Positions 5,084 to 31,215 of a stretch of 32,000 nucleotides of DNA are shown here, piece by piece. How positions within the stretch are numbered: position 1 is the first letter of the stretch; every line of letters begins with the position of its first letter. The notes under the pieces are model-generated. The model did no database searches, was not told the origin of the DNA, and saw only the letters and a program-made list of their open reading frames with translations. A program made the position numbers and the translations under genes. This DNA comes from Blattabacterium cuenoti (GTDB lineage: Bacteria; Bacteroidota; Bacteroidia; Flavobacteriales; Blattabacteriaceae), in NCBI GenBank assembly GCA_014251975.1, contig CP059204.1:150001-182000 (forward strand), written 5' to 3'.

Positions 5084-6835
5084 CTACATTTTATTCATCA
5101 TTTTTATTCCTAATAAATTCATTCCATTTTTTAAAATATTACCTGTAATATGAATAATATTCATATAATTATTACTTTTAATAGGGGTAAATGGATCTAT
5201 TAATTTTTTGTTTTGATAAAGATTATTAAATTTTTTTGATACTTCATAAATATAATTTGCTAATATAGATGGATTTAAATTTTTAGCTGATTTTTTTAAT
5301 ATAAAAGGATATTTTTTTATAATTTTAATTATATTTTTTCCATATATATTATCCCATATAATAGAATGTGAAAGATTATAATTGTCAGTAATATTACATT
5401 CTTCAAAAAATTTTGTTTCTAATGATCTAATTCTGGAATAAGTATATTGTATATATATACCAGTTTTACCTTTAAAATCGATTGATTTTTCTGGATAAAA
5501 AACAATTTTTTTTGAAGGATCTACTTTAAGAAAGTAATACTTTAATGCACTTAATCCAATTGTTTTGCAATAATTATTATAATCTTTGCATTGTACTTTT
5601 AATTTTTTTTTTGCCATATTTATCATTTGATAAATTAAATCATCTGCACTAATTACTTGTCCTTCCCTAGACTTCATTTTACCACTTGATAAAAACACCA
5701 TTTCATATGATAAATGATATATTTTACTAACCCATATACATCCAAGTCGTTTTAAAATAGTAAATAGAATTTTAAAATAATCATTTTGTTCTTTACCAAC
5801 TATATATATTAAATTATCTATTTTATATTTATTAAATCTATTTATAGCAGTACCTATATCTTGCGTTATATAAACAGAAGTTTTGTCAGATCTTAATAAT
5901 AATTTGTTATTAAATCCTTCATTTTTTAAGTCGATCCAAATAGATCCATCTTTTTTTTTAAAAAAAATACCATTTTTTAATCCATTTTCTATTATTTTTT
6001 TACCAAAATTATAAATATCACTTTCATATTCAGTTTTATCAAAACTTATATCAAGTTCATTATAAGTTTTTTTAAATCCATTATAAACCCATTTATTCAT
6101 CATTTTCCATATTTTTATGGTTTCTTTATCACCATCTTCCCATTTTTTTAACAGTATTCTGGCTTTTTTTAATATTGGAGCTTCTTTCCCATTAATAGAT
6201 TTTTTTTTTATTTCTTTATCATATATTAAATGAAACATTTTATAAAATCTTCCTACGAAGTGATCTCCTTTTTCTTTTGTTTTTATTGGTGTATTTCTTA
6301 TTCCAAATTCTTTCCAAGCTATCATAGATTTACATATATGTATTCCTCTATCATTAATCATTTGTATTTTCATTATATTATTCCCGACTGAACTTAATAT
6401 TCTTGAAATGGAATCTCCAATTAAAATATTTCTTATATGGCCTATGTGAAGTGGTTTATTAGCATTAGGTGATGAAAATTCTATTAAAATATTTTTAGAA
6501 GAAAAATTTAATTTATAAAAATTTGGATTTAACATATTTTTTAACAAAAAAATATAATATCCATCTAAAAAAATAAAATTTAAAAACCCATTAATAATGT
6601 AATATTTAATTAATCCATTAAAATAATTGGTTAAATAATTCCCAATATTTTCCCCTATTTCTTTAATAGGTTTTTTAATATTTTTAGATAAAGAAAATAA
6701 AACTAGTGTTATATCACCTGGATAACTTTTTTTTTTATATTGAAAATTTAGTTTAAAATTATAATTTATTTTATATAAATCATATAAACATTTTTTAGTA
6801 ATTTTTTCTATAGATTTTAAATAATATTTACTCAT
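5084..6835 (-). CDS. argS: arginine--tRNA ligase
   Basis: 583 aa. Class I HIGH motif (PNANKPLHIGHIRN). Overall ArgS architecture, with a DALR-type C-terminus ending in M. Confidence 0.9.
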   Translation of the reverse strand: MSKYYLKSIEKITKKCLYDLYKINYNFKLNFQYKKKSYPGDITLVLFSLSKNIKKPIKEIGENIGNYLTNYFNGLIKYYIINGFLNFIFLDGYYIFLLKNMLNPNFYKLNFSSKNILIEFSSPNANKPLHIGHIRNILIGDSISRILSSVGNNIMKIQMINDRGIHICKSMIAWKEFGIRNTPIKTKEKGDHFVGRFYKMFHLIYDKEIKKKSINGKEAPILKKARILLKKWEDGDKETIKIWKMMNKWVYNGFKKTYNELDISFDKTEYESDIYNFGKKIIENGLKNGIFFKKKDGSIWIDLKNEGFNNKLLLRSDKTSVYITQDIGTAINRFNKYKIDNLIYIVGKEQNDYFKILFTILKRLGCIWVSKIYHLSYEMVFLSSGKMKSREGQVISADDLIYQMINMAKKKLKVQCKDYNNYCKTIGLSALKYYFLKVDPSKKIVFYPEKSIDFKGKTGIYIQYTYSRIRSLETKFFEECNITDNYNLSHSIIWDNIYGKNIIKIIKKYPFILKKSAKNLNPSILANYIYEVSKKFNNLYQNKKLIDPFTPIKSNNYMNIIHITGNILKNGMNLLGIKMMNKM

Positions 6836-8262
6836 ATACTCATATGATAAAAAAAAATCATAAACAAAAATACAATTATAATGTTTAAAAATTTTTTCTT
6901 AATAAAAATTTCCATTTAAATAGGAAATTATGATGCATTATTTTGTTATATATAATAATTTTATTATTAATTTAACATATAATCTTTTATTTAAATTATG
7001 GTAATTTTAAAAATTTTACTTCATAGCTAATTTTATTAAAAATACTTATAAATTTTTCTGTAAGATATTACAAAAAATTCTTGTAATTAATTTTTTTAAT
7101 GTAATTAATTTTTTTAAATTATTTATGTTTATATTCCTTTCTTACAACCTATATTTTTTTCTAAATAACACTTGTATAGAAGTAATTTAATTTAATAATT
7201 ATAAATTAGCTTTTAGGGATAATTTTTAGGTATAATTAATTTATTTCTTAATAAAGAAAATAAAATTCATTTAATTGTACCAGATAATTATATTTTTATA
7301 TGATATTTTTATATATAATATGTATAATATTTGATAATTTTTTTTTTACTAATTTAGTATGATAATAAAAATAATAATTTACAACATATGCTTTATTTAG
7401 TAAATACCAACTTACTTATGTAGAGCTACTATTTACTATTGTATTTTTTTAGTTAGTTTATCCTACTAAATTTTCACATGCTTTTCTATAAAAAAAGATG
7501 GTATAAAATAAAAAATAATAAAAAATTTCTAAACGTAATACTGATTTATTATTAATTATATTAAAATTATCTTTTTAACGAAATAAAAACACTTAGTTAG
7601 TTAGTATAGTATATTTATATCCTTATTATCAAATAAATACTTTTTAATTAAATTATTAATGAGGATAAAATAATATTTTTATAAAATGGTAAATTATAGT
7701 ATTTTTATAACGTTTTTAACGTTTTTAAATTCGGAACATAAAAAAAATATTATCTGAATAATTAATTCCAAAATATATTAAAATTTATTTTTTAATGTGA
7801 AGTTTTTATTATTTTAATATTCAGTATTATGTTTTTATTTAATATTTTATTTAAGTAATATTTATTTTTATGTAATAATTTTAGTAATTATGAATTTAAT
7901 TTTTTTATATTATATATGTTTTTTATATGTATATGTAAAATTTGTTATATAAAAAATTTAAAAATATTATAGTAATAAAATTATGTTAATTAAATAGTTT
8001 GAATACTAGCATATTAACGAATTAATACTAAATTTTATGATCATTACTTAATTAATTCACGTAAGAAAAATTACATAAAAAAAAATAATTAATATGTAAA
8101 ATCACTAAGTATAATTTTTTTTATTCATATTTTTTGTTAAGTTATTTTTTATTTATATAATAATTAATTAAATAGAAAAATATTTTTTATTAATTATAAT
8201 TATTTTTTCATTTATAATAAATTATAAAAATTTATTTATTAATTTTAATTCAAAAATAGTAT
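6836..8262. other. 1.4 kb hyper-AT non-coding spacer between divergent argS and ndk (unidentified; possibly fully eroded gene remnant)
   Basis: No ORF of 65 aa or more in any frame in the supplied track. By eye, G/C bases are about one in ten or fewer. My hand translation of the few G/C-containing patches on both strands gave no recognisable motif. Confidence 0.6.
7083..7118. repeat. tandem duplication of an 18-nt unit (GTAATTAATTTTTTTAAT / GTAATTAATTTTTTTAAA)
   Basis: Read directly. 7083-7100 and 7101-7118 are identical at 17 of 18 positions. The exact first unit also occurs at 15023-15040. Confidence 0.7.
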
Positions 8263-8703
8263 ATGTTATATAATATTTTTTTTGGTAAAGTTACTTTATC
8301 TATTATAAAACCTGATGCGGTAAAAAATAGATATGTTCTACATATAATTAGAAAAATAATAAATGAAAAATTTAAAATAATTGAATTAAAAATTATAAAA
8401 ATTTCTAAAAAGTTAGCATCAAAATTTTATAAAAAACATAGTGATAAATATTATTTTAATGAATTAACTAATTTTATGTCTTCTGGATTTATAATACCTA
8501 TGATTTTAAAAAAAAATAACGCAGTAAAAGATTTTAGAAAATTAATAGGTAATACAAATCCAAATATTGCAAAAAAAGGAACAATTAGGAGTTTATACGC
8601 AACTTCTATTGAAGAAAATGCTATTCATGGATCTGATAGTAATAATAATGCTATTAAAGAATGTATTTTTTTTTTCCCCACAGAAAATTTTTTAAAAAAA
8701 TAA
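8263..8703 (+). CDS. ndk: nucleoside diphosphate kinase
   Basis: 146 aa. Motifs SIIKPDAV, NPNIAKKGTIRSLYA and the catalytic His context NAIHGSDS. Confidence 0.9.
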   Translation: MLYNIFFGKVTLSIIKPDAVKNRYVLHIIRKIINEKFKIIELKIIKISKKLASKFYKKHSDKYYFNELTNFMSSGFIIPMILKKNNAVKDFRKLIGNTNPNIAKKGTIRSLYATSIEENAIHGSDSNNNAIKECIFFFPTENFLKK

Positions 8704-10048: not shown

Positions 10049-12715
10049 TTATTTATATTTTTTTTTAAGGAAATATAAATTTTCTATTAAAGATTTAATT
10101 TTTTTTGTTATATCTTTTTTCTTTTTATATTCTTTAATAAGTATTTCTTCTGGTACAGAAGATAAATATTTATTATTTGATAGATTATTATTTATTTTTG
10201 TTAACTCAAAATTTAAATATTTAATTTTTTTATTAGCAATAACTATATTGTGTTCTATCATATTATCAGACAATATATTTTTTTCATCTGGTAATAGAAA
10301 AAATTTAAATGAATTTATTGAAAACGTTAATGATTTAAATTTAGGTTCTTTTAATAAAAATGTAATATTAGATAAATTACTCATTTTATATATAATAGGA
10401 TAATATCCTATATCTTTTTTCATTGTAAACAATGTAAAACTTTTTTTGAATGAAATGTTATTTTCATTTCTTATGCTACGTATTTTAGATACTATATCAA
10501 TACTATTTTTAAAATTAATTAATACATCTATATCATAATATTTTTTTTTAGGCCATTTTTCATTTATAAGATATTTATCAGAATTTTTATTTTTTATTAG
10601 TAACCATATTTTTTCAGAAATAAAAGGGATATATGGATGTAATAATTTTAATATCTTTTTAAAATATTTTATAACATTAAAATAAACTTTTTTAGAAATA
10701 TATTTATTATCTATTGGTTTTATTATTTCTAAAAATAATGAGCAAAAATCACCCCAAAAAAATTTGTATAAAATCATAGATGATTCATTTAATTTATATT
10801 CTGACATTTTATTTTCAAAAATTTCTAAAACATAATAAAAACGATTTTTTAACCATTTAATAGCGATACTAGTACTATTTGGAATAGTATTTTTTTCTTC
10901 TATTTTCCAACTTTTTATTAAACGAAAAGAATTCCAAATTTTATTTATAAATTTATTCCCCTGAAAAAATATTTTTTCATCGAAATAAAAATCTTTTCCT
11001 GCATTAGTTTTTAAACTAATACCCATTCTAATAGAATCAGCACCATATTTATCAATTAAATATGTAGAATTAGGACTGTTATTTAATGATTTTGAAATTT
11101 TTTTATTTAAAGAATCTCTAATAATACCAGTAAAAAATACTCTTTTAAATGGTAGTTTTTTTTTAAATAATAATCCTGATATAATCATTCTTGCTACCCA
11201 AAAAAATAATATATCTGAACCAGTAATTAAATCTGTAGTTGGATAATAGTACTGTATATCATTGTTATTAGGGGAATTAATACCATCAAATACAGATATA
11301 GGTAGCAAACAAGAAGAAAACCAAGTATCTAATACATTTTTATCTTTACATAAATTATTATAACCTAAGTTATAATTATTACTTTTATTTTTAGCTTCTT
11401 TTAATGCTTTATGAATATCTTCTTCTACTACAAATTCATTATTATTTTTACCATAATAATAAACAGGTATTCTGTGTCCCCACCATAATTGTCTAGATAT
11501 ATTCCAATCATGTATTTCATTCATCCATTTAAAATATATTTTTTTAAAATTATTAGGATAAAACTTAATTTTTCCATTCTTTACTAAATTAATAGCAGAT
11601 AGAGAAATTTTTTTCATTTTTAAAAACCATTGCATAGATGGTATATATTCTATCATTGAAAATGTACGTTCTGAAAATCCTACTTTATGATGTATTTTTT
11701 TTATATTAGATAGTTTTCCTAACTTATTTAATTCATTAACTACGTTATTTCTAACCTTTAACCTATCCATTCCTGAATAATGCATACCTTTTTCATTAAT
11801 TGTAGCATCTTTGTTAAAAATATTAATAATTTCTAAATTATGTTTTTCAGCTAGAATTTGATCATTTAAATCATGTGCTGGTGTAACTTTTATACATCCT
11901 GTACCGAATTTAATATCTACATATGTATCTTGTATAATAGGTATTATCCTATTTATTATAGGAATTATTGCTTGTTTACCTAATAATTTTTTATATCGTA
12001 TATCATTGGGATTAAAACAAATAGCTGTATCTCCAAATATTGTTTCTGGTCTAGTAGTAGCTATAGTAACAAAATTATTTTCATTTTTTATTTTATATTT
12101 AATATAATACAAATTATCTATTTGTTCTTTATAAATTATTTCTTCGTCAGAAATTGTTGTCTTTGCTTTTGGATCCCAATTAACAACGTGATATTTTCTA
12201 TATATATATCCCTTTTTATATAAATCAACAAATGCTTTTATTACAGATTTTGATAAATTATTATTCATAGTGAATTGAAAACGATTCCAATCACAGGAAC
12301 ATCCTATTTGTTGTAATTGTTTAATAATAATATTTTTATGTTTATCAACCCATTTAAATACATAATTTAAAAAACCTTGTTTACCTAATAATGATTTAGA
12401 TATTCCTTTTTTTTTTAATTCTTCTACAATTTTTGCTTCTGTTGCTATAGAAGCATGATCTACACCTGGTACCCAACAAACATTATATCCTTTCATTCTA
12501 AAATATCTAATTAAAACATCTTGTATTGTATTATTTAAAATATGTCCTATATGTAACGTACCAGTTACATTAGGTGGTGGCATAATAACAGTGTAAGGTG
12601 TTTTATTATGATCTGGATAAGATGAAAAACAATTTCCTTTTATCCATTTATTATATATTTTTTTTTCAATTAGTTTTGGATTATACTTAATTGAAAAATC
12701 TGAAATAGTCTCCAT
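10049..12715 (-). CDS. valS: valine--tRNA ligase
   Basis: 888 aa. HIGH motif (PPPNVTGTLHIGH), KMSKS-like motif (KISKSLNNS), and a C-terminal coiled-coil. Confidence 0.93.
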   Translation of the reverse strand: METISDFSIKYNPKLIEKKIYNKWIKGNCFSSYPDHNKTPYTVIMPPPNVTGTLHIGHILNNTIQDVLIRYFRMKGYNVCWVPGVDHASIATEAKIVEELKKKGISKSLLGKQGFLNYVFKWVDKHKNIIIKQLQQIGCSCDWNRFQFTMNNNLSKSVIKAFVDLYKKGYIYRKYHVVNWDPKAKTTISDEEIIYKEQIDNLYYIKYKIKNENNFVTIATTRPETIFGDTAICFNPNDIRYKKLLGKQAIIPIINRIIPIIQDTYVDIKFGTGCIKVTPAHDLNDQILAEKHNLEIINIFNKDATINEKGMHYSGMDRLKVRNNVVNELNKLGKLSNIKKIHHKVGFSERTFSMIEYIPSMQWFLKMKKISLSAINLVKNGKIKFYPNNFKKIYFKWMNEIHDWNISRQLWWGHRIPVYYYGKNNNEFVVEEDIHKALKEAKNKSNNYNLGYNNLCKDKNVLDTWFSSCLLPISVFDGINSPNNNDIQYYYPTTDLITGSDILFFWVARMIISGLLFKKKLPFKRVFFTGIIRDSLNKKISKSLNNSPNSTYLIDKYGADSIRMGISLKTNAGKDFYFDEKIFFQGNKFINKIWNSFRLIKSWKIEEKNTIPNSTSIAIKWLKNRFYYVLEIFENKMSEYKLNESSMILYKFFWGDFCSLFLEIIKPIDNKYISKKVYFNVIKYFKKILKLLHPYIPFISEKIWLLIKNKNSDKYLINEKWPKKKYYDIDVLINFKNSIDIVSKIRSIRNENNISFKKSFTLFTMKKDIGYYPIIYKMSNLSNITFLLKEPKFKSLTFSINSFKFFLLPDEKNILSDNMIEHNIVIANKKIKYLNFELTKINNNLSNNKYLSSVPEEILIKEYKKKKDITKKIKSLIENLYFLKKKYK

Positions 12716-14278: not shown

Positions 14279-14289
14279 TAAAGAACTTA

Positions 14290-15016
14290 AATTTATTAAT
14301 ATTTTCAGTTTTACCACCCAATAGTATAGTAATGAATAATATCAATAATCAATACAAAATTTTTTAATTCCATATATTTATGTATTACAATACTATAATA
14401 ATATTTAATACATTATTTTTATCTTTTGTTTTATTTATAATTAATCTGGTATACTAATATAAAAATTAGTTGAAAAAAAATATTTAAATTATTAAAATAA
14501 ATTGGTTTTTAATTATAGGTATAAATTAGTTCATATATCCCGTGTAATATACATTTTTTGACAAATGAAAAAATATTTTTTTATAAAAAAATATTTTAGT
14601 AACATTAGTAACAATATAATTATCTCCTGAATTAATTTTTTTTTCAAAAAACATAAATTACTTTAAATAGTTCTTATAAATGTTTTTTATTATATTATTC
14701 TACACCAATAAAAAAATAAAATACAGTAGTATTTATCAAAAAAATTAGGTTAAATAAATTTAAATATGTTACTTGTTTTACTAATAATATTTCACACTTA
14801 TACTCATTTTTTTTTGCAAAAAAAAAATCATATTTTATTAAATTTTCTATATTAATACTAAAAAATTATCTATACACAAAAATTTTAAATCTATTAATGA
14901 ATTTTATATAATATTTAATCCATACATATATGGAGTACAGAATTAATAAATACCATATTTATTCATAATAGCTGAACCAATACCTAAAGTACATGGCCTA
15001 ATTAATATTTTTTTTA
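14290..15016 (-). pseudogene. probable eroded short-chain dehydrogenase/reductase (SDR) gene
   Basis: My minus-strand hand translation gives IKKILIRPCTLGIGSAIMNKYGIY* from about 15016 (TLGIGSAI = 14967-14990). This resembles the SDR N-terminus MKKxLITGxxxGIGxAI. About 150 codons downstream, in a shifted frame, is SGDNYIVTNVTKIFFYKKIFFHLSKNV (FHLSKNV = 14550-14570). This resembles IVNISS...YxxSKaA at the expected spacing. Many stops and frameshifts lie in between. The boundaries are approximate. Confidence 0.45.
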
Positions 15017-15157
15017 TAGTAAGTAATTAATTTTTTTAATAAAAGTAGGATTAAATTTGATAAATGGATCTATACAAAAAATATTTTTAATATATAAAAA
15101 AAAAATAAAACTTTTTTCTATATTATGTTATATATTATATAATTTTCATTTTCATAA

Positions 15158-16426
15158 TTATTTTATACTATCAAATCCTGTATATGGTATCAAAACTTTA
15201 GGAATATTTATTTGATAATTTGTTTGATAATTTTCTAATAAAGTAACTAAAATTCTAGGTATTGCTAGAGAACTTCCATTAAGTGTATGACATAATGCTA
15301 TTTCTCCAGTAACATTATTTTTATATTTAATATTTAATCTATTTGATTGAAAATTTGTACAATTAGATATAGAACTAACCTCTAACCATTTTTTTTGTGC
15401 TATAGAATATACTTCAATATCATAAGTTATAGAAGAAGAATATCCAAGATCAGGTCCAGTTAAACGTAAAATTCTAAAAGGCAAATTTAATGATATTATT
15501 ATATTTTTTACATGTAATATCATATTTTTTAATGCATAATTAGAATTTTTGGAAGATGTAATTTGAATTATTTCTACTTTATCAAACTGATGTAATCTAT
15601 TTATACCCTTAGATTTTGTTCCATAAGATCCAGCTTCTCTCCTAAAACAAGGTGTATAAGTAGTAGCTTTAATAGGTAGATCATTTTCATTAAAAATTTT
15701 ATCTCTATAACAATTCATAAGTGGTACTTCTCCTGTAGGAATAAGATATAATTTATCATTTTCTATAAAATACATTTGATTTTCTTTGTCTGGTATTTGC
15801 CCAGTAGAAATACCAGACATTTCATTTATTAAATAAGGTAGATTATATTCTTTATATGAATATTTTATATTTATATCTAAAAAATATTGTATTAAACTTC
15901 TTTGTAATTTAGCACATTTATCAATGTATACTGAAAAACCAGTTCCACACATTTTTGACCCTAAACTCAAATCAAATAAATTAAATTTTTTTGTTAATTC
16001 CCAGTGAGGTAATGGATTATTTACTAATTTTTTAATTTTTTTTTCTTTAAATAAAATATTATTTTTATCAAAATTTTTATTTACATATTTATCTGGTATA
16101 TTAGGTATATTTATTAATTTTTGATTAATTATAAATAAAATATCTTTCAATTCTTTCTTTAATTTTTTTTTTTTATTCTTTGAAAGAATACATTTATTTT
16201 TAATATCATTTAATTCATAATTTTTATTTTTAATTAATAATTTTCCTATTTTTTTTGATAAAATATTTTCTTTTTCCAATATTTTATTTAGAATATTTTG
16301 TATTTTTTTTCTTTTTTTGTCTAATAATAATACTTCATCTATAAGATAAATTTTCTTAAAATTTCTTTTTTTTAATCTAAATAATATTTTTTCTCTATTT
16401 TTAGATATAAAAGATATCCGTAACAT
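15158..16426 (-). CDS. serS: serine--tRNA ligase
   Basis: Class II motifs (FRREAGSYG, LNGSSLAIPR) and an N-terminal coiled-coil arm. The track ORF begins at a TTG (16465). The ATG at 16426 (MLRISFISKNREKI) matches the usual SerS N-terminus. Confidence 0.9.
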   Translation of the reverse strand: MLRISFISKNREKILFRLKKRNFKKIYLIDEVLLLDKKRKKIQNILNKILEKENILSKKIGKLLIKNKNYELNDIKNKCILSKNKKKKLKKELKDILFIINQKLINIPNIPDKYVNKNFDKNNILFKEKKIKKLVNNPLPHWELTKKFNLFDLSLGSKMCGTGFSVYIDKCAKLQRSLIQYFLDINIKYSYKEYNLPYLINEMSGISTGQIPDKENQMYFIENDKLYLIPTGEVPLMNCYRDKIFNENDLPIKATTYTPCFRREAGSYGTKSKGINRLHQFDKVEIIQITSSKNSNYALKNMILHVKNIIISLNLPFRILRLTGPDLGYSSSITYDIEVYSIAQKKWLEVSSISNCTNFQSNRLNIKYKNNVTGEIALCHTLNGSSLAIPRILVTLLENYQTNYQINIPKVLIPYTGFDSIK

Positions 16427-19565: not shown

Positions 19566-20291
19566 TTAATTTATAATTTTATGTAATTCTTTTAATGATA
19601 TGAAATTTTCATAAATTGCTTTTCCAATTATAACACCATAACACCCTATCTTAATAAGATTTTTTATATCTTTTATATTTCTAATTCCACCACTGGCAAT
19701 ACATTCTATATTAGGAAAATTTTTTATTATTTTTTTATATAAATTAAAAGATGGACCAGATAATTTACCATCTTTTGAAATATCTGTACAAAAAATTCTT
19801 TTAACTCCATTTATATATTTTTGTTTAAAAAAATCAAATAAAGAAATATCCAATAACTTTGTCCATCCATTAATTGCTATATAATTATTTTTAATATCTA
19901 CTCCTAACAATATTTTTTCTTTACCATATATATTTATACTTTTTTTTAAAATAATAGGATTTTTAATAGCTATACTCCCAATAGTTGCTATATTTCCACC
20001 ATTTTCAAAAACAAGTTTTATATCTTCTTCTGTTTTTATACCACCTCCAAAATCTATAATTAAATTTGTTTTATTTGCTATTTTTTCTAAAATATTCCAA
20101 TGTATAACTTTTCCTAATCTTGCTCCGTCTAAATCAACTAAATGTATTCTAGATATTCCATTATCTTCTAATAATAAAGCCATTTCTAATGGATTATTTT
20201 TATAAATTTTTTTATTACAAAAGTTACCCTGTGTTAATCTAACACACTTGTTATTCATTACATCTATAGCAATTATAATATTATTTTTCAT
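19566..20291 (-). CDS. hisA: ProFAR isomerase
   Basis: 241 aa. Motifs IIAIDVMNNKCVRLTQGNF, HLVDLDGA, DFGGGI and ASGGI. Confidence 0.9.
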   Translation of the reverse strand: MKNNIIIAIDVMNNKCVRLTQGNFCNKKIYKNNPLEMALLLEDNGISRIHLVDLDGARLGKVIHWNILEKIANKTNLIIDFGGGIKTEEDIKLVFENGGNIATIGSIAIKNPIILKKSINIYGKEKILLGVDIKNNYIAINGWTKLLDISLFDFFKQKYINGVKRIFCTDISKDGKLSGPSFNLYKKIIKNFPNIECIASGGIRNIKDIKNLIKIGCYGVIIGKAIYENFISLKELHKIIN

Positions 20292-20911: not shown

Positions 20912-22072
20912 TTATAATAAACCTTTAGAACTTAAAATATAATTATGATTTTTTTGTATAGCCATTTTAATTGCTTTAGCAAAACATTTAAAAATAGATT
21001 CTATTTTATGATGTTCATTATTACCAGTAGATATAATATGTAAATTACATTTTGCAGATGAAGAAAAAGATTTAAAAAAATGGTAAAACATTTCTGTTGG
21101 AATGTCACCTATTTTTTCTCTATAAAAATTAGCATTCCAATTGAATTGATCTCTTCCACATAAATCTAATACTACTTTAGATAAACTATCGTCCATTGGT
21201 AATATAAAAAATCCATAACGTTCAATTCCAATTTTATCTCCCAAAGATTTACGAAATATATTTCCTAATGCTATACCAACATCTTCTATAGTATGATGTT
21301 CATCTACATGTAAATCACCATAGGCATATAAATTTATATCCATTAAACTATGAATTGATATTTGTTCTATAAGATGATCAAAAAATCCTATTCCTGTATG
21401 TATATTATTTATCCCATTACCATATAATGATAATGATATCGTAATATTTGTCTCTAATGTATTACGTTTATAAATTTCTATTTTTTTATTTTTATTTTTT
21501 AAATATTCATATATATCTTTCCATTTATTTGTTTTTAAAGAAATTGTTTTATATAATTTTTTTTTATATAATTCATAAAAATATTTTTTTTCTTCTTCTG
21601 TAAAATTTTCAAAATTATTATTTCCTTTTATCCATATTGATTTACAACCCAAATTCTTTGCTAACATTATATCAGTTAATCTATCTCCAATAACAAATGA
21701 TTCTTTAATATTATAAATTGATTTATCTAAATAAGACAATAACATACTTATACCAGGTTTTCTTGTTGATAAATTATCTTTTATATAAGTTTTATCAATA
21801 TGAATAGAAGAAAAAATAATATTTTCATATTTTAAAATATTTATAATATGATTATGAATTGGCCAGAATTTGTTTTCTGGAAAATTAACAGATCCTAATC
21901 CATCTTGATTTGTAACCATAACAAATTCATAATCTAATTCTTCATATATTCTTGATAAGAAAAAAATAACTCTAGGATAAAAAAATAATTTTTCAATTGA
22001 ATCAATTTGATAATTATTAGGATCTTCTTTAATTATAGTTCCATCTCTATCAATAAACAATATTTTTTTCAT
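20912..22072 (-). CDS. hisB: bifunctional histidinol-phosphatase / imidazoleglycerol-phosphate dehydratase
   Basis: 386 aa. HAD N-terminus (FIDRDGTII...VTNQDG) and IGPD C-terminus (DEHHTIEDVGIALG, NEHHKIESIFKCFAKA). The start overlaps the hisC stop (TAATG at 22070-22074). Confidence 0.92.
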   Translation of the reverse strand: MKKILFIDRDGTIIKEDPNNYQIDSIEKLFFYPRVIFFLSRIYEELDYEFVMVTNQDGLGSVNFPENKFWPIHNHIINILKYENIIFSSIHIDKTYIKDNLSTRKPGISMLLSYLDKSIYNIKESFVIGDRLTDIMLAKNLGCKSIWIKGNNNFENFTEEEKKYFYELYKKKLYKTISLKTNKWKDIYEYLKNKNKKIEIYKRNTLETNITISLSLYGNGINNIHTGIGFFDHLIEQISIHSLMDINLYAYGDLHVDEHHTIEDVGIALGNIFRKSLGDKIGIERYGFFILPMDDSLSKVVLDLCGRDQFNWNANFYREKIGDIPTEMFYHFFKSFSSSAKCNLHIISTGNNEHHKIESIFKCFAKAIKMAIQKNHNYILSSKGLL

Positions 22073-23172
22073 TAAATTTTATATTTATTATCGAATTTTT
22101 TTATGTTATCTACAAGATATTTATTTTCTTCATGAGTACCTATGGTTATTCTTAAACAATTGTTACATAATTCAATTTTATTTCTATCTCTAACAATAAT
22201 TTTTTTTTCAATTAAATATTTATATAATTTATAACTTGAATTATATATTTTTACAAGAATAAAATTAGAATCACTAGGATATACTTTTTGTACTACAGAT
22301 ATTTTATTTAAAGAATTTTCCATATATTTTCTTTCTAATAGAATATTTTTTAAATTGAAAAAAAATAAATCTTTATTATCCAATGCATTAATAGCAATTT
22401 CTTGTGACAAGATGTTAATATTATATGGATATTTTATTTTGTTCATAAATTCAATAATATATTTTGAAGCTATACCAATACCTATTCTTATACCTGCCAA
22501 TCCCCAAGATTTAGAAAGAGTTTGTAAAACAATTAAATTAGGATATTTATTTATTTTTGAAGTAAAAGATTTTTCTTCAGAAAAATCTATATAAGCCTCA
22601 TCTATTACTACAATGCCAGAGTACCTTGTTATAATATATTCAATATCTTTTTTTTTTATATTATTTCCTGTTGGATTGTTTGGAGAACAAATAAAAATTA
22701 TTTTACTATATTTATTTATAACGTTATTTATATTTTTTAAGTCTAATTGAAATATTTCTTTTATTAAAGGAATTTTAATTATTCTTATACCATGAATATT
22801 GCCTATTATTTCATACATACCATATGTTGGGGGACAAATAATGCAATTATCTATTTCTGGTATAGAAAAAATACGATATATTAAATCTATAATTTCATCA
22901 CTTCCATTACCTAAAAATATATTTGATACAGGAATTTTTTTTAATTCTGATATTTTTTTTTTTAATTCCATTTGTAATGGATCAGGATATCTATTATAAG
23001 AATTAATACAAGATATAGTAGATCCAAATGAATTTTCATTAGCATCTAAAAATATAAAATTTTCTTTCCTTTTATTCTCTAATCTAGCAGATAAATAAGG
23101 ATTAATTTTCCTAATATTATCTCTAATTAAAGAATATAAATTAAAATTAGAAATATTTTTATTTTTGTACAT
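22072..23172 (-). CDS. hisC: histidinol-phosphate aminotransferase
   Basis: 366 aa. PLP lysine context LQTLSKSWGLAGIRIG. Also NPTG and YPDP. Confidence 0.9.
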   Translation of the reverse strand: MYKNKNISNFNLYSLIRDNIRKINPYLSARLENKRKENFIFLDANENSFGSTISCINSYNRYPDPLQMELKKKISELKKIPVSNIFLGNGSDEIIDLIYRIFSIPEIDNCIICPPTYGMYEIIGNIHGIRIIKIPLIKEIFQLDLKNINNVINKYSKIIFICSPNNPTGNNIKKKDIEYIITRYSGIVVIDEAYIDFSEEKSFTSKINKYPNLIVLQTLSKSWGLAGIRIGIGIASKYIIEFMNKIKYPYNINILSQEIAINALDNKDLFFFNLKNILLERKYMENSLNKISVVQKVYPSDSNFILVKIYNSSYKLYKYLIEKKIIVRDRNKIELCNNCLRITIGTHEENKYLVDNIKKFDNKYKI

Positions 23173-26273: not shown

Positions 26274-26346
26274 TGACCTGACTGGGATTCGAACCCAGGA
26301 CCCTTACATTAAAAGTGTAATGCTCTACCAGCTGAGCTACCAGGTC
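26274..26346 (-). tRNA. tRNA-Lys (anticodon UUU)
   Basis: The minus strand reads GACCTGG TA GCTC AGCTGGTA GAGC A TTACA CTTTTAA TGTAA GGGTC CTGGG TTCGAAT CCCAG TCAGGTC A. This is a full 73-nt cloverleaf with anticodon TTT in a 7-nt loop. No CCA is encoded. Confidence 0.93.
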
Positions 26347-26385: not shown

Positions 26386-26925
26386 ATGAATATTACTTTA
26401 TTGGGATATATGGGTTGTGGAAAAACAACTATAGGTAAAATTTTATCTTATAAATTAAATTTAAAATTTTATGATCTAGATAATATTATTATAAATCATC
26501 AAAATGACACAATAAACAATATATTTAAAAAAAAAGGAGAATTATATTTTAGAAAAATAGAAAAATATTTGCTTAAAGAATTTTTTCTAAAAAATATTAA
26601 AGGATATATTTTATCTGTTGGAGGTGGGACTCCGTGTAGTTTTAATAATATTTATATAATAAATAAATATTCAAAAACATTTTATATAAAATTAGATAGT
26701 TTTTATTTATTTAAAAGATTATTTTTAGATAAAAATAATAGACCTTTAATATCTAAATTAAGTAAATGTGAACTTTTTAAGTTTATAATAACAAATTTAT
26801 ATAAACGAAGTATTTTTTATGAAAAATCATTTAGAATAATTAATGCAAACAACAAAAATAAAAAATATATAGTAATGAATATAATTAAAGAATTTAATAA
26901 TTTTAATCAAAAAAGTTATTTATGA
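26386..26925 (+). CDS. aroK: shikimate kinase
   Basis: 179 aa. P-loop LLGYMGCGKTTIGK, plus DLD and VGGGTP. Confidence 0.85.
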   Translation: MNITLLGYMGCGKTTIGKILSYKLNLKFYDLDNIIINHQNDTINNIFKKKGELYFRKIEKYLLKEFFLKNIKGYILSVGGGTPCSFNNIYIINKYSKTFYIKLDSFYLFKRLFLDKNNRPLISKLSKCELFKFIITNLYKRSIFYEKSFRIINANNKNKKYIVMNIIKEFNNFNQKSYL

Positions 26926-28298
26926 ATAAAATATTATATGATAATAATTTAATTTATGAAATTAAAAATATTTTTTCATATAAATTTTCAAAAAATATAG
27001 CAGTAGCTGTTAGTGGTGGCCTAGATAGTATGGTATTAATTAATTTATTATTAAAATATGTATCTAAAAGTATATTAGAAGTGATTCATTGCAATTTTAA
27101 TCTAAGAGGGATTGAATCATATAAAGATGAAATGTTTGTTAAAAATTTTTGTAAAAACAAAAATATTATATTTAATGTTAAAAGATTTAAAAAATTAAGT
27201 ACTTACAGTAAAAAACAAGGGGTTTCTATACAAATGTATGCCAGAAAATTAAGGTATAATTGGTTTAATGAATTATTAAACAAAAAATCATATAAATATA
27301 TAGTATTAGGACATCATTTAGATGATTCTATAGAAACTTTTTTTATTAACATATTAAGAGGAACTGGTTTACCAGGATTATTAGGTATACCCAAAAAAAA
27401 TGGTAAATTTATTCGTCCACTTTCTAATTTTAGGAAAGAAGATATATTAAATTATGCAAAATTAAATAATATTGAATGGAGAATTGATAAAAGTAATTAT
27501 AATACTAAATATTTAAGAAATAAAATACGTATTCATTTATCATCAATAATAAAACAATTAAATTGTTTTTATAAAGGATTTAAAAAAACAATTAATTTAT
27601 TATATGAAGAAAATAGTTTAATAAAACATATAATAAAAGAAATAATAAATAACATTACTATAGATAAAAAAATTAATCCTTTTTTTTGGAAGATTGACAA
27701 TAAAAAACTTTTAGAATTTAAAACTTTACCTTTATCTGTTATTTTATTCAGATTGTTTAATCCATATGGATTTTCAGATATTGAAAGTTTAAAACGATTT
27801 ATTAATGCACAATCTGGAAAACAAATATTATCTAAAAAATATAGAATAATAAAAAATCAAAATTTTTGGATATTAGTTAGTAATTTTGACTTTTTAAAAA
27901 ATAAAAAAAAAGTTTTTAAAATTAATAATAATTACGAATTAGAAAATTATAATAAAAAATTACCAATAAAAATAAAATTTATTAATAATTATAATAATAA
28001 AAACAAAAAAATTAATAAAAAAATAATTTATTTAATAAATTTTGAAAAAATTAAATTTCCTATTTTATTAAGAACATGGGATAAAGGAGATTACTTTTAT
28101 CCTTATGGAGTGAAAGGTAAACAAAAATTAAGTAAATTTTTTAAAAATGAAAAATTATCTTTATTTGAAAAAGAAAATATATGGTTGTTAATAAATGGAA
28201 ATGGATATATAATTTTAATAATAGGATACCGTTTAGATAAACGATTCAAAATAATAAAAAAAACGAATAAAATATTATGTGTAGAATATAAACGTTAA
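26922..28298 (+). CDS. tilS: tRNA(Ile)-lysidine synthase
   Basis: 458 aa. PP-loop AVAVSGGLDSMVL, plus LGHHLDDSIETFFIN. ATGA overlap with the aroK stop. Confidence 0.9.
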   Translation: MNKILYDNNLIYEIKNIFSYKFSKNIAVAVSGGLDSMVLINLLLKYVSKSILEVIHCNFNLRGIESYKDEMFVKNFCKNKNIIFNVKRFKKLSTYSKKQGVSIQMYARKLRYNWFNELLNKKSYKYIVLGHHLDDSIETFFINILRGTGLPGLLGIPKKNGKFIRPLSNFRKEDILNYAKLNNIEWRIDKSNYNTKYLRNKIRIHLSSIIKQLNCFYKGFKKTINLLYEENSLIKHIIKEIINNITIDKKINPFFWKIDNKKLLEFKTLPLSVILFRLFNPYGFSDIESLKRFINAQSGKQILSKKYRIIKNQNFWILVSNFDFLKNKKKVFKINNNYELENYNKKLPIKIKFINNYNNKNKKINKKIIYLINFEKIKFPILLRTWDKGDYFYPYGVKGKQKLSKFFKNEKLSLFEKENIWLLINGNGYIILIIGYRLDKRFKIIKKTNKILCVEYKR

Positions 28299-28351
28299 AT
28301 AGATTTTAATTAATTTAATTAAAACAATAGTAATAACAAAAAAAAATATTA

Positions 28352-29008
28352 ATGGGAAAATATTATTTAGAGAGTAATTTTTTATCTATAAAAAAATCTA
28401 TACCAAAAAATATTAAAATATTAATAGTTTCTAAAAATCAAAATATTTATTCAATAAATAAGTTATACAATTTAGGTCATAGAGATTTCGGAGAAAATTA
28501 CGTACAGGAAATGAAAAAAAAATATAATTATCTTCCTAAAAATATTAGATGGCATATGATTGGTAAAATACAAAAAAATAAATTAAAATATATAATACCC
28601 TTCGTACATCTAATTCATAGTATACAAAAAATTGAACATATTGAAATAATTAATAAAATATCAAAAAAATTAAATAAAATATCTTATTGTCTTTTACAAA
28701 TAAAAATTTGTTATGATAAATCAGGTATAACTATGGAACAAGCAATTAAAATTTTAGATTATAGCAAAAATATGAATAATATACAAATTATTGGTCTTAT
28801 GGGGATGGCTTCTATTAATAATAAAAAAAGTATAATAAATAAAGAATTTTTTTCATTATATAAATTATATAATAATTTTAAAACTATATATGGACATACT
28901 GTACTTTCAATTGGAATGAGTAAAGATTATTTATTAGCTATAAAAAATGGCTCTACTATTGTAAGATTAGGATCTATAATTTTTGGTCATAGAAATAATT
29001 TAATTTAG
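28352..29008 (+). CDS. yggS: YggS-family pyridoxal-phosphate homeostasis protein
   Basis: 218 aa. Motifs ILIVSKNQ (PLP-lysine context), FGENYVQE, WHMIGKIQKNK, LSIGMSKDY and VRLGSIIFG. Confidence 0.85.
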   Translation: MGKYYLESNFLSIKKSIPKNIKILIVSKNQNIYSINKLYNLGHRDFGENYVQEMKKKYNYLPKNIRWHMIGKIQKNKLKYIIPFVHLIHSIQKIEHIEIINKISKKLNKISYCLLQIKICYDKSGITMEQAIKILDYSKNMNNIQIIGLMGMASINNKKSIINKEFFSLYKLYNNFKTIYGHTVLSIGMSKDYLLAIKNGSTIVRLGSIIFGHRNNLI

Positions 29009-29064
29009 AATATTATTAATATATATTTTTATAATTTTTTTATAGGATACAAAATTTTATTATT

Positions 29065-29163
29065 TTAAAATACATATACAGTCTCTTTTGATAACTTTTT
29101 TACAATATTAACAATATTATATGTAAAATAATTATAATTATCTATAATTAATATTTTGTTCAT
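29065..29163 (-). pseudogene. trpG: anthranilate synthase component II (trpG/pabA-type glutamine amidotransferase), 32-codon N-terminal stub
   Basis: Minus-strand hand translation from the ATG at 29163 gives MNKILIIDNYNYFTYNIVNIVKKLSKETVYVF*. This matches the canonical TrpG N-terminus (ILxIDNYDSFTYNLVqyLgelg). The ATG overlaps the trpE-remnant stop as ATGA. Only about 55 nt remain before the yggS 3' end, so the catalytic part is deleted. Confidence 0.7.
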
Positions 29164-30356
29164 AAACTAATTGATATAAAATAAGCTATTTTTACAGATT
29201 TAAATAAAGCCATAAGTTTATTATTTACCTCTTCTAATTCATTTTTTTTTTTTGAATTAGATACTATACCAGCACCCACCTGAAAAAAAAACATTATTTT
29301 TACTAATAGAAGAACGGATTATAATATAATAGCTGTATCACAATATTTTATGTATTATTTAAACAAAAGTATCCAATATATCCTCCATATAAACCTATAC
29401 TTTTATTTTCAATACAATCTATTAGTTCCATATCTTTATATTTTTGTGCACCTGATAAAGTACCAGCTGTAAAGAAAGGTATCTAAAAAAATTTTAAATA
29501 TAGAAGTTTATTCTTCTATCTATCTATCCAGACAGATCCCTTACCATATGTAATACATGGGATAATGTATGTATTTATTTTAATTTTTATACTTTTACAT
29601 TACTGTAATTTTTACTTAAATTATCTATTGCTAAATCTACTAACATAATATGTTCATAATTTTATTTTGTATTTTTTTTTGTATTTTTTAAAAAACTTAT
29701 TTTTTATACTTTTTTATTTTTTTATAGTTCCTTTTATTGGACTTACATATTCTTTTTTATCTTTAATAATAAATTGTAATTCTGTAAAAAATCCAAATAA
29801 TTTATAACTACTGTAATCAAAATAAAAAATATATGGAGATGGATTTATATATCGTAAAGCAACTATATACATTAAATTCATCACCCTTAAATTTATGTTT
29901 AAATTGTGTCTAGATAGATAATACAATTTGAAAAACATCTCCATTTAAAGTTACTATCCCTTTAAACTAAATTTTTTTTGTATTCTGTATTATTAATATT
30001 TGAAGTATAGTGTTCTACTGATTTAAATTGGTAAAATAAAAAATTTTTTTTATAAATAATTTTTACTAATTTATCTATATAAGTTTTTTTGTCTATTTTT
30101 TGTATATATAAAAAAAACATGTTCAATAATTTTTATTTCATTATTAAAATTATTAAAAATAATCAAATTTTTATAGAAATTTAACCGTATTTTAGGAATA
30201 TTATATACACTATTATTATTTAAAAAATTAATATTTTTAGATCCCAATAATAAAGTATTTGGATATATATCTCTTATTTTTATATACAATTATATAGGTG
30301 TAGTAATATCATCTAAAATTTTTTTTCTGAGTAGTTATAAAATTAAATTTTAACAT
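29160..30356 (-). pseudogene. trpE: anthranilate synthase component I, degraded by multiple in-frame stops and frameshifts
   Basis: Minus-strand hand translation shows TrpE motifs in the correct order. (1) DDITTPI*LYIKIRDIYPNTLLLGS, about 30230-30320. (2) NGDVFQIVLSI*, GDVFQIVLS = 29916-29942, TAG at 29910-29912. (3) ALRYINPSPYIFYF, NPSPY = 29831-29845. (4) SPIKGTIKK*. (5) EHIMLVDLAIDNLSKNYSNVKV*, 29632-29655, TAA at 29587-29589. (6) SHVLHMV. (7) [36 protein letters not shown], 29442-29464. (8) QVGAGIVSNS...ELEEVNNK, 29253-29276. GTLSGAxK, YGGxxGY and GAGIV favour TrpE over PabB. Track ORFs 29714-29944 and 30071-30289 are fragments of this gene. Confidence 0.85.
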
Positions 30357-30519
30357 AATTTGTTATTATTTGTTATACTTAAACTGTTAAACTATATTTA
30401 TATTAAACTACTACGGTAATAATGTAATAATAAAAAAATGGTATTGTATAAAAAAAATTTTAATTTTTTTTACGTATTTTATCTGTTTTTATAAAAACTG
30501 AAAAATTTACATTTTATAT

Positions 30520-31215
30520 ATGCATATGTCAATTTTAATGAAAAATATTTCTTGTTTGCTATTATCTATTTTTATACCAATTTATACTTCTATTTTTATT
30601 AAAAATATTAAAAAAAAAAATGATATAAAAAAAAATGAAATTCAAACTGCTGTCGAATATATTAAAAAATATTCTCATATAGCAGTTAAAGATATGGAAA
30701 AATATGGGATACCAGCTAGTATTAAGTTGGGACAAGCTATGGTAGAATCATCTATTGGTAAAAGTATATTATCAAAAAAAACGAATAATCATTTTGGAAT
30801 AAAATGTGGTAAATATTGGACAGGAAATAAATATCATAATAATGACACTTATCTTTGTTTTAGAAAATATAACACTGTTCAAGATTCTTTTAAAGATCAT
30901 TCAAATGTTTTAAGACTTCCACGTTATTCTAAACTTTTTTCTTGTAAAAAGAACGATTATAGATCTTGGGCAAAAGAATTGAAAAAATTAGGATATGCAA
31001 CTTCTATAGGGTATACAAAATTAATAATAAAAAATATAGAGAAATATTTTTTGTGGAAATTAGATAAAGAAGTAGTATCTAATATAGAGAGAAGAATAAA
31101 CTTACATATAAAATTAATTATGAGAACACATAATAAATATAAGATAAAAAAAACAATGGAAAAAATTAGTTTTTTCCGTAAATTCATTTTTAAAATATTC
31201 AAAAAAAAATTATAG
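30520..31215 (+). CDS. glucosaminidase-domain peptidoglycan hydrolase (mannosyl-glycoprotein endo-beta-N-acetylglucosaminidase family)
   Basis: 231 aa. N-terminal TM/signal segment, then IPASIKLGQAMVESSIGKSILSKKTNNHFGIKC...FRKYNTVQDSFKDHSNVL...WAKELKKLGYATS, typical of the FlgJ/LytD-type glucosaminidase domain. Alternative ATG starts at 30526 and 30538. Confidence 0.75.
   Translation: MHMSILMKNISCLLLSIFIPIYTSIFIKNIKKKNDIKKNEIQTAVEYIKKYSHIAVKDMEKYGIPASIKLGQAMVESSIGKSILSKKTNNHFGIKCGKYWTGNKYHNNDTYLCFRKYNTVQDSFKDHSNVLRLPRYSKLFSCKKNDYRSWAKELKKLGYATSIGYTKLIIKNIEKYFLWKLDKEVVSNIERRINLHIKLIMRTHNKYKIKKTMEKISFFRKFIFKIFKKKL

Follow-up and report, generated by a model that had tools for sequence, protein, structure and literature searches.

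Between yggS and a gene encoding a glucosaminidase-domain protein, the window (the entire 32-kb stretch of Blattabacterium DNA that was analysed, with a G+C content of approximately 20%) contains a gap of 1,511 nt in which the open reading frames do not exceed 76 codons; on its minus strand this gap holds a trpE pseudogene (psi-trpE) and a stub of trpG (see Table 1 for the positions of all features). The window was compared with two Blattabacterium loci that have retained the intact trp operon, CP059182.1 (632 kb; L001) and CP059214.1 (561 kb; L082), and with the loci of strain EUPOLsin (639 kb; L002), of a Cryptocercus punctulatus strain (L083) and of a strain with a chromosome of 587 kb that stems from a JGI metagenome (L084). 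Both genes bordering the gap are intact: the yggS product scored 158.7 bits against its NCBIfam model, over the cut-off, and is 58% identical to YggS of L001, and the glucosaminidase gene is syntenic with the PF01832 gene of L001 (tblastn, E = 9e-53). The spacer between the latter gene and trpE comprises 163 nt (30357-30519).

NCBIfam models confirmed the presence of eight his genes (hisG, D, C, B, H, A, F and IE), aroK and yggS in the window, in agreement with the original prediction that the his operon and aroK are intact. The scores of AroK (26386-26925; 141 bits, NCBIfam cut-off 180) and HisA (19566-20291; 226.9 bits, cut-off 228.95) lay below the thresholds of their models, as would fit proteins that evolve very rapidly in this lineage; genes such as these two could be missed by automated annotation. 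The HisC protein (22072-23172, 366 aa) was found clustered with 21 cbb3 oxidase subunit-like proteins of 55 aa, evidently a database clustering artefact. Two other parts of the window are free of genes: a 1.43-kb stretch at 6836-8262 (about 13% G+C), located between the open reading frames 5084-6835 (minus strand) and 8263-8703 (plus strand), and a 0.88-kb stretch at 14279-15157. Neither of them gave a Pfam match in six frames or a tRNA or Rfam signal; the tRNA and Rfam scans retrieved a single tRNA-Lys (26274-26346). The stretch at 6836-8262 may represent one or several fully eroded genes.

Table 1. Features of the decayed trp locus in the window, and decay stages of the same locus in the strains compared (L001, CP059182.1; L082, CP059214.1).
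Feature	Position or locus	Strand	Basis
serC deletion scar, 53-nt spacer between tilS (26922-28298) and yggS	28299..28351	.	synteny, tblastn
yggS, intact; 3' flank of the operon, convergent with trp	28352..29008	+	NCBIfam TIGR00044
Junction of the ~4.8-kb deletion (trpG codon ~54 through trpA), against the yggS stop	29009..29016	.	comparison with L001
trpG remnant tail past the first stop, in frame	29017..29064	-	local alignment score 27, shuffle control
trpG stub, 32 codons, stop TAA 29067-29065	29065..29163	-	ORF, tblastn, NCBIfam
psi-trpE (anthranilate synthase component I)	29160..30356	-	Pfam, NCBIfam, protein matches, frame-aware alignment, tblastn
psi-trpE N-terminal 50 codons, with D..TP and LLE-like motifs	30209..30356	-	alignment, tblastn
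Glucosaminidase-domain gene, intact; 5' flank, divergent from trpE	30520..31215	+	L001 synteny, tblastn
Decay stage 1: intact trpEGDCFBA	L001, L082		
Decay stage 2: psi-trpE and trpG stub	window		
Decay stage 3: about 50 N-terminal trpE codons, frameshifted (E = 1.5e-4)	L002 (EUPOLsin)		
Decay stage 4: 274 nt, no remnant	L083 (Cryptocercus punctulatus strain)		
Decay stage 4: 122 nt, no remnant	L084 (587-kb strain)		

Identity and lesions of the trpE remnant

The TrpE motifs follow each other in the correct order on the minus strand, spread over the three frames of its translation; this arrangement, which had been read from the sequence in the original prediction, agreed with the Pfam matches and with a colinear alignment. 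The stitched C-terminal two thirds of the remnant matched positions 18-257 of the 257-position Chorismate_bind profile (PF00425) with an E-value of 4.5e-38; the N-terminal piece matched Anth_synt_I_N (PF04715) with 23.7 bits at a cut-off of 23 (E = 6e-5) and was also retrieved by tblastn with TrpE residues 16-49 (E = 2e-6). The tblastn search with intact Blattabacterium TrpE resulted in 7-8 colinear HSPs in several frames (combined E = 2e-60) and that with TrpG in one match, the pattern foreseen for a broken trpE-trpG pair. In a collection of 5.8 billion proteins, the best matches of the stitched TrpE were anthranilate synthase component I proteins of Blattabacterium cuenoti (468 aa) with 53-56% identity at 97% query coverage (E about 1e-71).

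The Chorismate_bind domain and the TrpG/PabA amidotransferase fold are common to several enzyme families, and the trpE_most score of the remnant is below the curated cut-off; both points would be compatible with a derivation from pabB/pabA (aminodeoxychorismate synthase of folate synthesis) or from another chorismate-binding enzyme. However, the stitched psi-trpE scored 221 bits against trpE_most, compared with 126 for the best PabB, 84 for the isochorismate synthase and 60 for the salicylate synthase model, and intact Blattabacterium TrpE revealed the same ranking and likewise remained under the curated trpE cut-off. In addition, the orthologous locus of both L001 and L082 continues with trpD, C, F, B and A. 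Family scores and synteny together led us to reject the pabB/pabA derivation as extremely improbable. Given this ranking and its recurrence in intact Blattabacterium TrpE, the remnant descends from trpE itself and not from a paralogue.

The extent of the damage was determined by frameshift-tolerant dynamic programming, in which intact Blattabacterium TrpE (468 aa) was aligned to the window DNA. Colinearity extends from the start codon ATG at 30356 down to position 29175, with identical residues in 223 of the 380 codon columns (59%). Its best path contains nine in-frame stops, nine frameshifts and one internal deletion of 84 codons, the count of the small lesions varying with the alignment chosen. 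Seven of the stops are TAA (30292-30290, 29716-29714, 29664-29662, 29589-29587, 29577-29575, 29510-29508 and 29350-29348) and two are TAG (29912-29910, directly after the VLS motif, and 29522-29520). The frameshifts are located at 30326, 30094, 29967, 29861, 29695, 29526, 29474, 29326 and 29292; several of them fall in A/T runs, that at 30326 being a +1 shift inside a run of eight A. The internal deletion has removed residues 51-134 of the reference TrpE (junction at about 30209/30208). The remnant spans 399 codons compared with 468 in intact relatives, i.e. it is 69 codons short, and in place of an uninterrupted trpE frame of about 468 codons the longest open reading frame has 76. The lesion load of trpE is heavier than first described: at least eight stops and at least three frame changes had been proposed, and those cited at the time (TAG at 29910-29912, TAA at 29587-29589; frame changes corresponding to 30326, about 29861 and 29695) were all recovered on the best path, as was a shortening within the expected 60-70 codons.

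The location of several frameshifts in A/T runs, exemplified by the A8 run at 30326, raises the question of whether the organism itself has an unbroken gene, the lesions being either homopolymer errors of sequencing or assembly or shifts that are corrected by transcriptional slippage; indeed, the rescue of frameshifts by slippage has precedent in some endosymbionts, as cited in a passage of PMC11632294. However, neither the correction of indels nor slippage can repair nine stops of the substitution type, the loss of 84 internal codons or the absence of six and a half genes (see below). In consequence of these stops and of the 84-codon and ~4.8-kb deletions, resequencing could not restore the frame, and the lesions are not homopolymer errors; an artefact or slippage was rejected on these grounds, and an intact gene is hardly credible.

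The trpG remnant and the deleted part of the operon

The TGA that ends trpE (29162-29160) overlaps with an ATG (29163-29161) in the arrangement ATGA; this ATG opens the trpG stub, and both the overlap and the 32-codon reading frame were confirmed where the original prediction had placed them. The N-terminal beta-strand/loop motif of TrpG (ILxxDNYDSFTYNL) is present directly downstream of trpE. The stub matched TrpG residues 6-40 with 60% identity (tblastn, E = 8e-8) and the NCBIfam models of anthranilate synthase component II with an E-value of 6e-7; the Pfam scan of the stub gave no match. Between the stop of the stub and that of yggS lie 56 nt (about 55 according to the prediction). Read through in frame, this tail resembles TrpG residues 37-53 (NNKI-LYPIKKL*KYIL versus NNEIKLSDVEKYSKIIL) and contains a second stop at 29031-29029; its alignment score was reached by 25 of 5000 shuffles in a control limited to the colinear part of TrpG. 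According to the alignment of the tail, about 50 trpG codons with two stops survive instead of just 32, and the deletion junction abuts yggS. The statement that the remainder of trpG is gone holds for most of the gene, the remnant extending beyond the 32-codon frame. A complete GATase domain (about 190 aa with a Cys-His-Glu triad) is absent: the remnant ends before the cysteine region 'GVCLGQQ' of the reference. Intact TrpE and TrpG of CP059182.1 and CP059214.1 are orthologous to the remnants (59% identity) and have the same motif order and flanks; in contrast to them, the copy in the window is no gene, and the amidotransferase partner is cut before its catalytic residues.

In L001 and L082 the genes are arranged in the order gcvH, glucosaminidase gene (in L001), trpEGDCFBA, yggS, serC, tilS, aroK, an Exo_endo_phos gene and hisG, and the window has this order reversed; the flanks common to L001 and L082 place the remnant at the orthologous position, the head of the trpEGDCFBA operon. 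In L001 the start of trpG is at 11421 and the end of trpA at 16377, followed by the end of yggS at 16387. Measured against this locus, a segment of about 4.8 kb that begins near trpG codon ~54 and includes the whole of trpA has gone from the window; this amounts to six and a half genes, and about 1.35 kb remain of the original 6.4 kb of the operon. In the 32-kb window, tblastn searches with TrpD, C, F, B and A remained without a match. The supposition that the downstream trpDCFBA, if contiguous, was gone as well proved correct, since L001 and L082 hold the full operon at the position where the window is without it, and the syntenic alignment with relatives that had been suggested mapped the deletion breakpoint directly against yggS (see Table 1).

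A second difference was found on the other side of yggS. The gene serC (phosphoserine aminotransferase, about 1.07 kb, 354-355 aa) is located between tilS and yggS in L001, L002, L082, L083 and L084 (L001: 17062-18129, NCBIfam 465 bits) and had no tblastn match in the 32-kb window. By this comparison serC is wholly deleted here, a second pathway gene lost beside the trp remnant.

Decay of the locus in other Blattabacterium strains

Taken together, the window and the other strains represent four successive steps in the decay of this locus, extending from the complete operon to its full erasure (see Table 1); such decay has taken place repeatedly and independently, and the window captures one moment of it. 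The case has in common with those of other Blattabacterium strains (Cryptocercus punctulatus, Mastotermes darwiniensis and Geoscapheus spp.) the operon, the locus, the genus and the course of pseudogenisation followed by deletion. It differs from them in its intermediate stage, with a 1.2-kb trpE pseudogene and about 50 trpG codons being kept: nothing is left in strains of the Cryptocercus punctulatus/Mastotermes type, EUPOLsin has about 50 trpE codons, and trpE is reportedly retained in the Geoscapheus strains.

In EUPOLsin, the sole survivor of the trp genes consists of trpE codons ~2-54 (L002 11014-11153). The breaks in trpE are situated near codon 50-54 both in this strain and in the window, where the deletion begins at about codon 51, which could reflect a coincidence or a deletion hotspot. 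It is conceivable, albeit improbable, that the 5' end of trpE is preferentially spared during the decay of the operon; a recurrent deletion breakpoint could explain such a sparing, or, alternatively, signals that the neighboring glucosaminidase or porin gene requires may reside in the divergent upstream region together with the initial ~150 nt of trpE. A related proposal is that the remnant is kept for a new role, serving either the glucosaminidase gene as a divergent promoter or 5' region or yggS as a terminator or spacer. In its favor, the trpE 5' end survives in three independent cases (the window, EUPOLsin and the Geoscapheus strains that have trpE only, PMC11632294), in the first two with the break near codon 50-54. 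However, the operon has been erased wholly in L083 and L084 with its neighbors intact, the 5' codons that remain are themselves damaged, by a stop and a frameshift in the window and by a frameshift in EUPOLsin, and a pattern seen in no more than two or three cases could be due to chance; a new role is accordingly considered quite improbable.

The surroundings of the operon vary as well. The trpE remnant of EUPOLsin adjoins an open reading frame of 644 aa that is 48% identical to a Porin_10-family gene of L083. This gene (623-644 aa) lies between the trp locus and the glucosaminidase gene in EUPOLsin (L002 11316-13250) and next to gcvH in L083 (10935-12806), where the glucosaminidase gene is lost and reduced to a remnant of roughly 370 nt (L083 12807-13179; intact in the window). 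It is absent from the window, where 163 nt are left at 30357-30519, and the 711-nt spacer of L001 (9290-10000) contains a weak Porin_10-family remnant (E = 0.004). The tilS gene, intact in the window, is split in two frames in L083 (7515-8933; HSPs with residues 9-101 and 99-448).

Among the matches listed, YggS of the window is 58-66% identical to all other Blattabacterium YggS proteins; the neighboring proteins show 47-67% identity to their orthologues in L001 and L082, L082 being no closer than L001. As no close sister strain was found, the trp loss cannot be dated by comparison, and as the identity of the TrpE remnant (59%) is about that of its intact neighbors (47-67%), the age of the inactivation is poorly constrained.

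Probable loss of the tryptophan pathway

Only 32 kb of the chromosome were read directly, which leaves room for the view that psi-trpE is a decaying duplicate and that an intact trp operon elsewhere in the genome maintains the pathway. Against this view, the remnant occupies the ancestral single-copy position of the operon, as seen in L001 and L082, and gene order is conserved across the genus, high synteny and hardly any rearrangements having been reported for Blattabacterium genomes (preprint 10.64898/2026.08.23.746292). Moreover, a search of the protein collection with the TrpE of the window yielded no TrpE of the window's own chromosome among the best 120 matches listed, the Blattabacterium proteins among them originating from chromosomes of 561-640 kb. 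The same applies to TrpA: about 52 Blattabacterium clusters with at least 62% identity, from chromosomes of 561-645 kb, and proteins of other bacteria with at most 60% identity were among the best 120 matches listed, and none of these came from the window's own chromosome. As a positive control, YggS of this chromosome was retrieved from the same collection. Finally, a doubled 7-kb operon is implausible in the smallest genome known from the genus. A decaying duplicate is in consequence very unlikely, and trp genes are probably absent from the rest of the chromosome.

With high confidence, we interpret the DNA that separates yggS from the glucosaminidase gene as what is left of the ancestral trpEGDCFBA operon, still in its original place and decayed under relaxed selection. 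Gene loss in endosymbionts generally proceeds from relaxed selection to inactivating mutations and, by a deletion bias, to the removal of the inactivated genes. In the present case, selection for tryptophan provision would have been relaxed at first; trpE would then have gathered stops, frameshifts (several in A/T runs) and the 84-codon internal deletion, and one or more larger deletions would have taken ~4.8 kb, comprising trpG from codon ~54 onward and all genes up to and including trpA, and fused the stub to the 3' end of yggS. This order of the mutational events and relaxed selection as their cause are our reconstruction from the present state of the locus. On this reading, the remnant is non-functional and non-coding and is heading for erasure by the deletion bias of endosymbionts.

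Recurrent trp loss in Blattabacterium is already known, and the genome has been published. Neef et al. are said to have described trp loss in this genus in 2011. In the comparison of 67 Blattabacterium genomes of 511-645 kb by Kinjo et al. 2021 (PMC8382890), trpB (tryptophan synthase beta) was the gene most often lost in the genus, with 24 independent losses, and the tryptophan pathway was among those "lost as a whole", termed a 'domino effect'; the 511-kb genome in this data set, that of a Euphyllodromia sp. strain, is without 130 genes and fast-evolving. Beasley-Hall et al. 2024 (PMC11632294) documented that Geoscapheus strains have lost all trp genes but trpE and that the loss is complete in Cryptocercus and Mastotermes strains. 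The reading of the locus as an instance of pathway loss is supported; such losses are far commoner in Blattabacterium (24 for trpB, PMC8382890) than assumed in the original prediction, which spoke of some lineages of wood-feeding hosts. The repeated loss of an expensive essential-amino-acid pathway likewise occurs in Buchnera with Serratia co-symbionts and in Carsonella, a parallel drawn in PMC11632294; these belong, however, to another phylum and live in other hosts, and for the strain of the window no co-symbiont or compensating source is known.

The value of the locus is illustrative and lies in annotation (the marking of psi-trpE and psi-trpG) rather than in discovery. According to the genes retained, the symbiont would no longer be able to make tryptophan from chorismate, with the histidine genes and the shikimate kinase gene being kept. 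The window provides a base-by-base intermediate in the loss of an essential-amino-acid pathway: trpE at the head of the operon is full of lesions, the genes behind it have been excised, and the neighboring operons are untouched.
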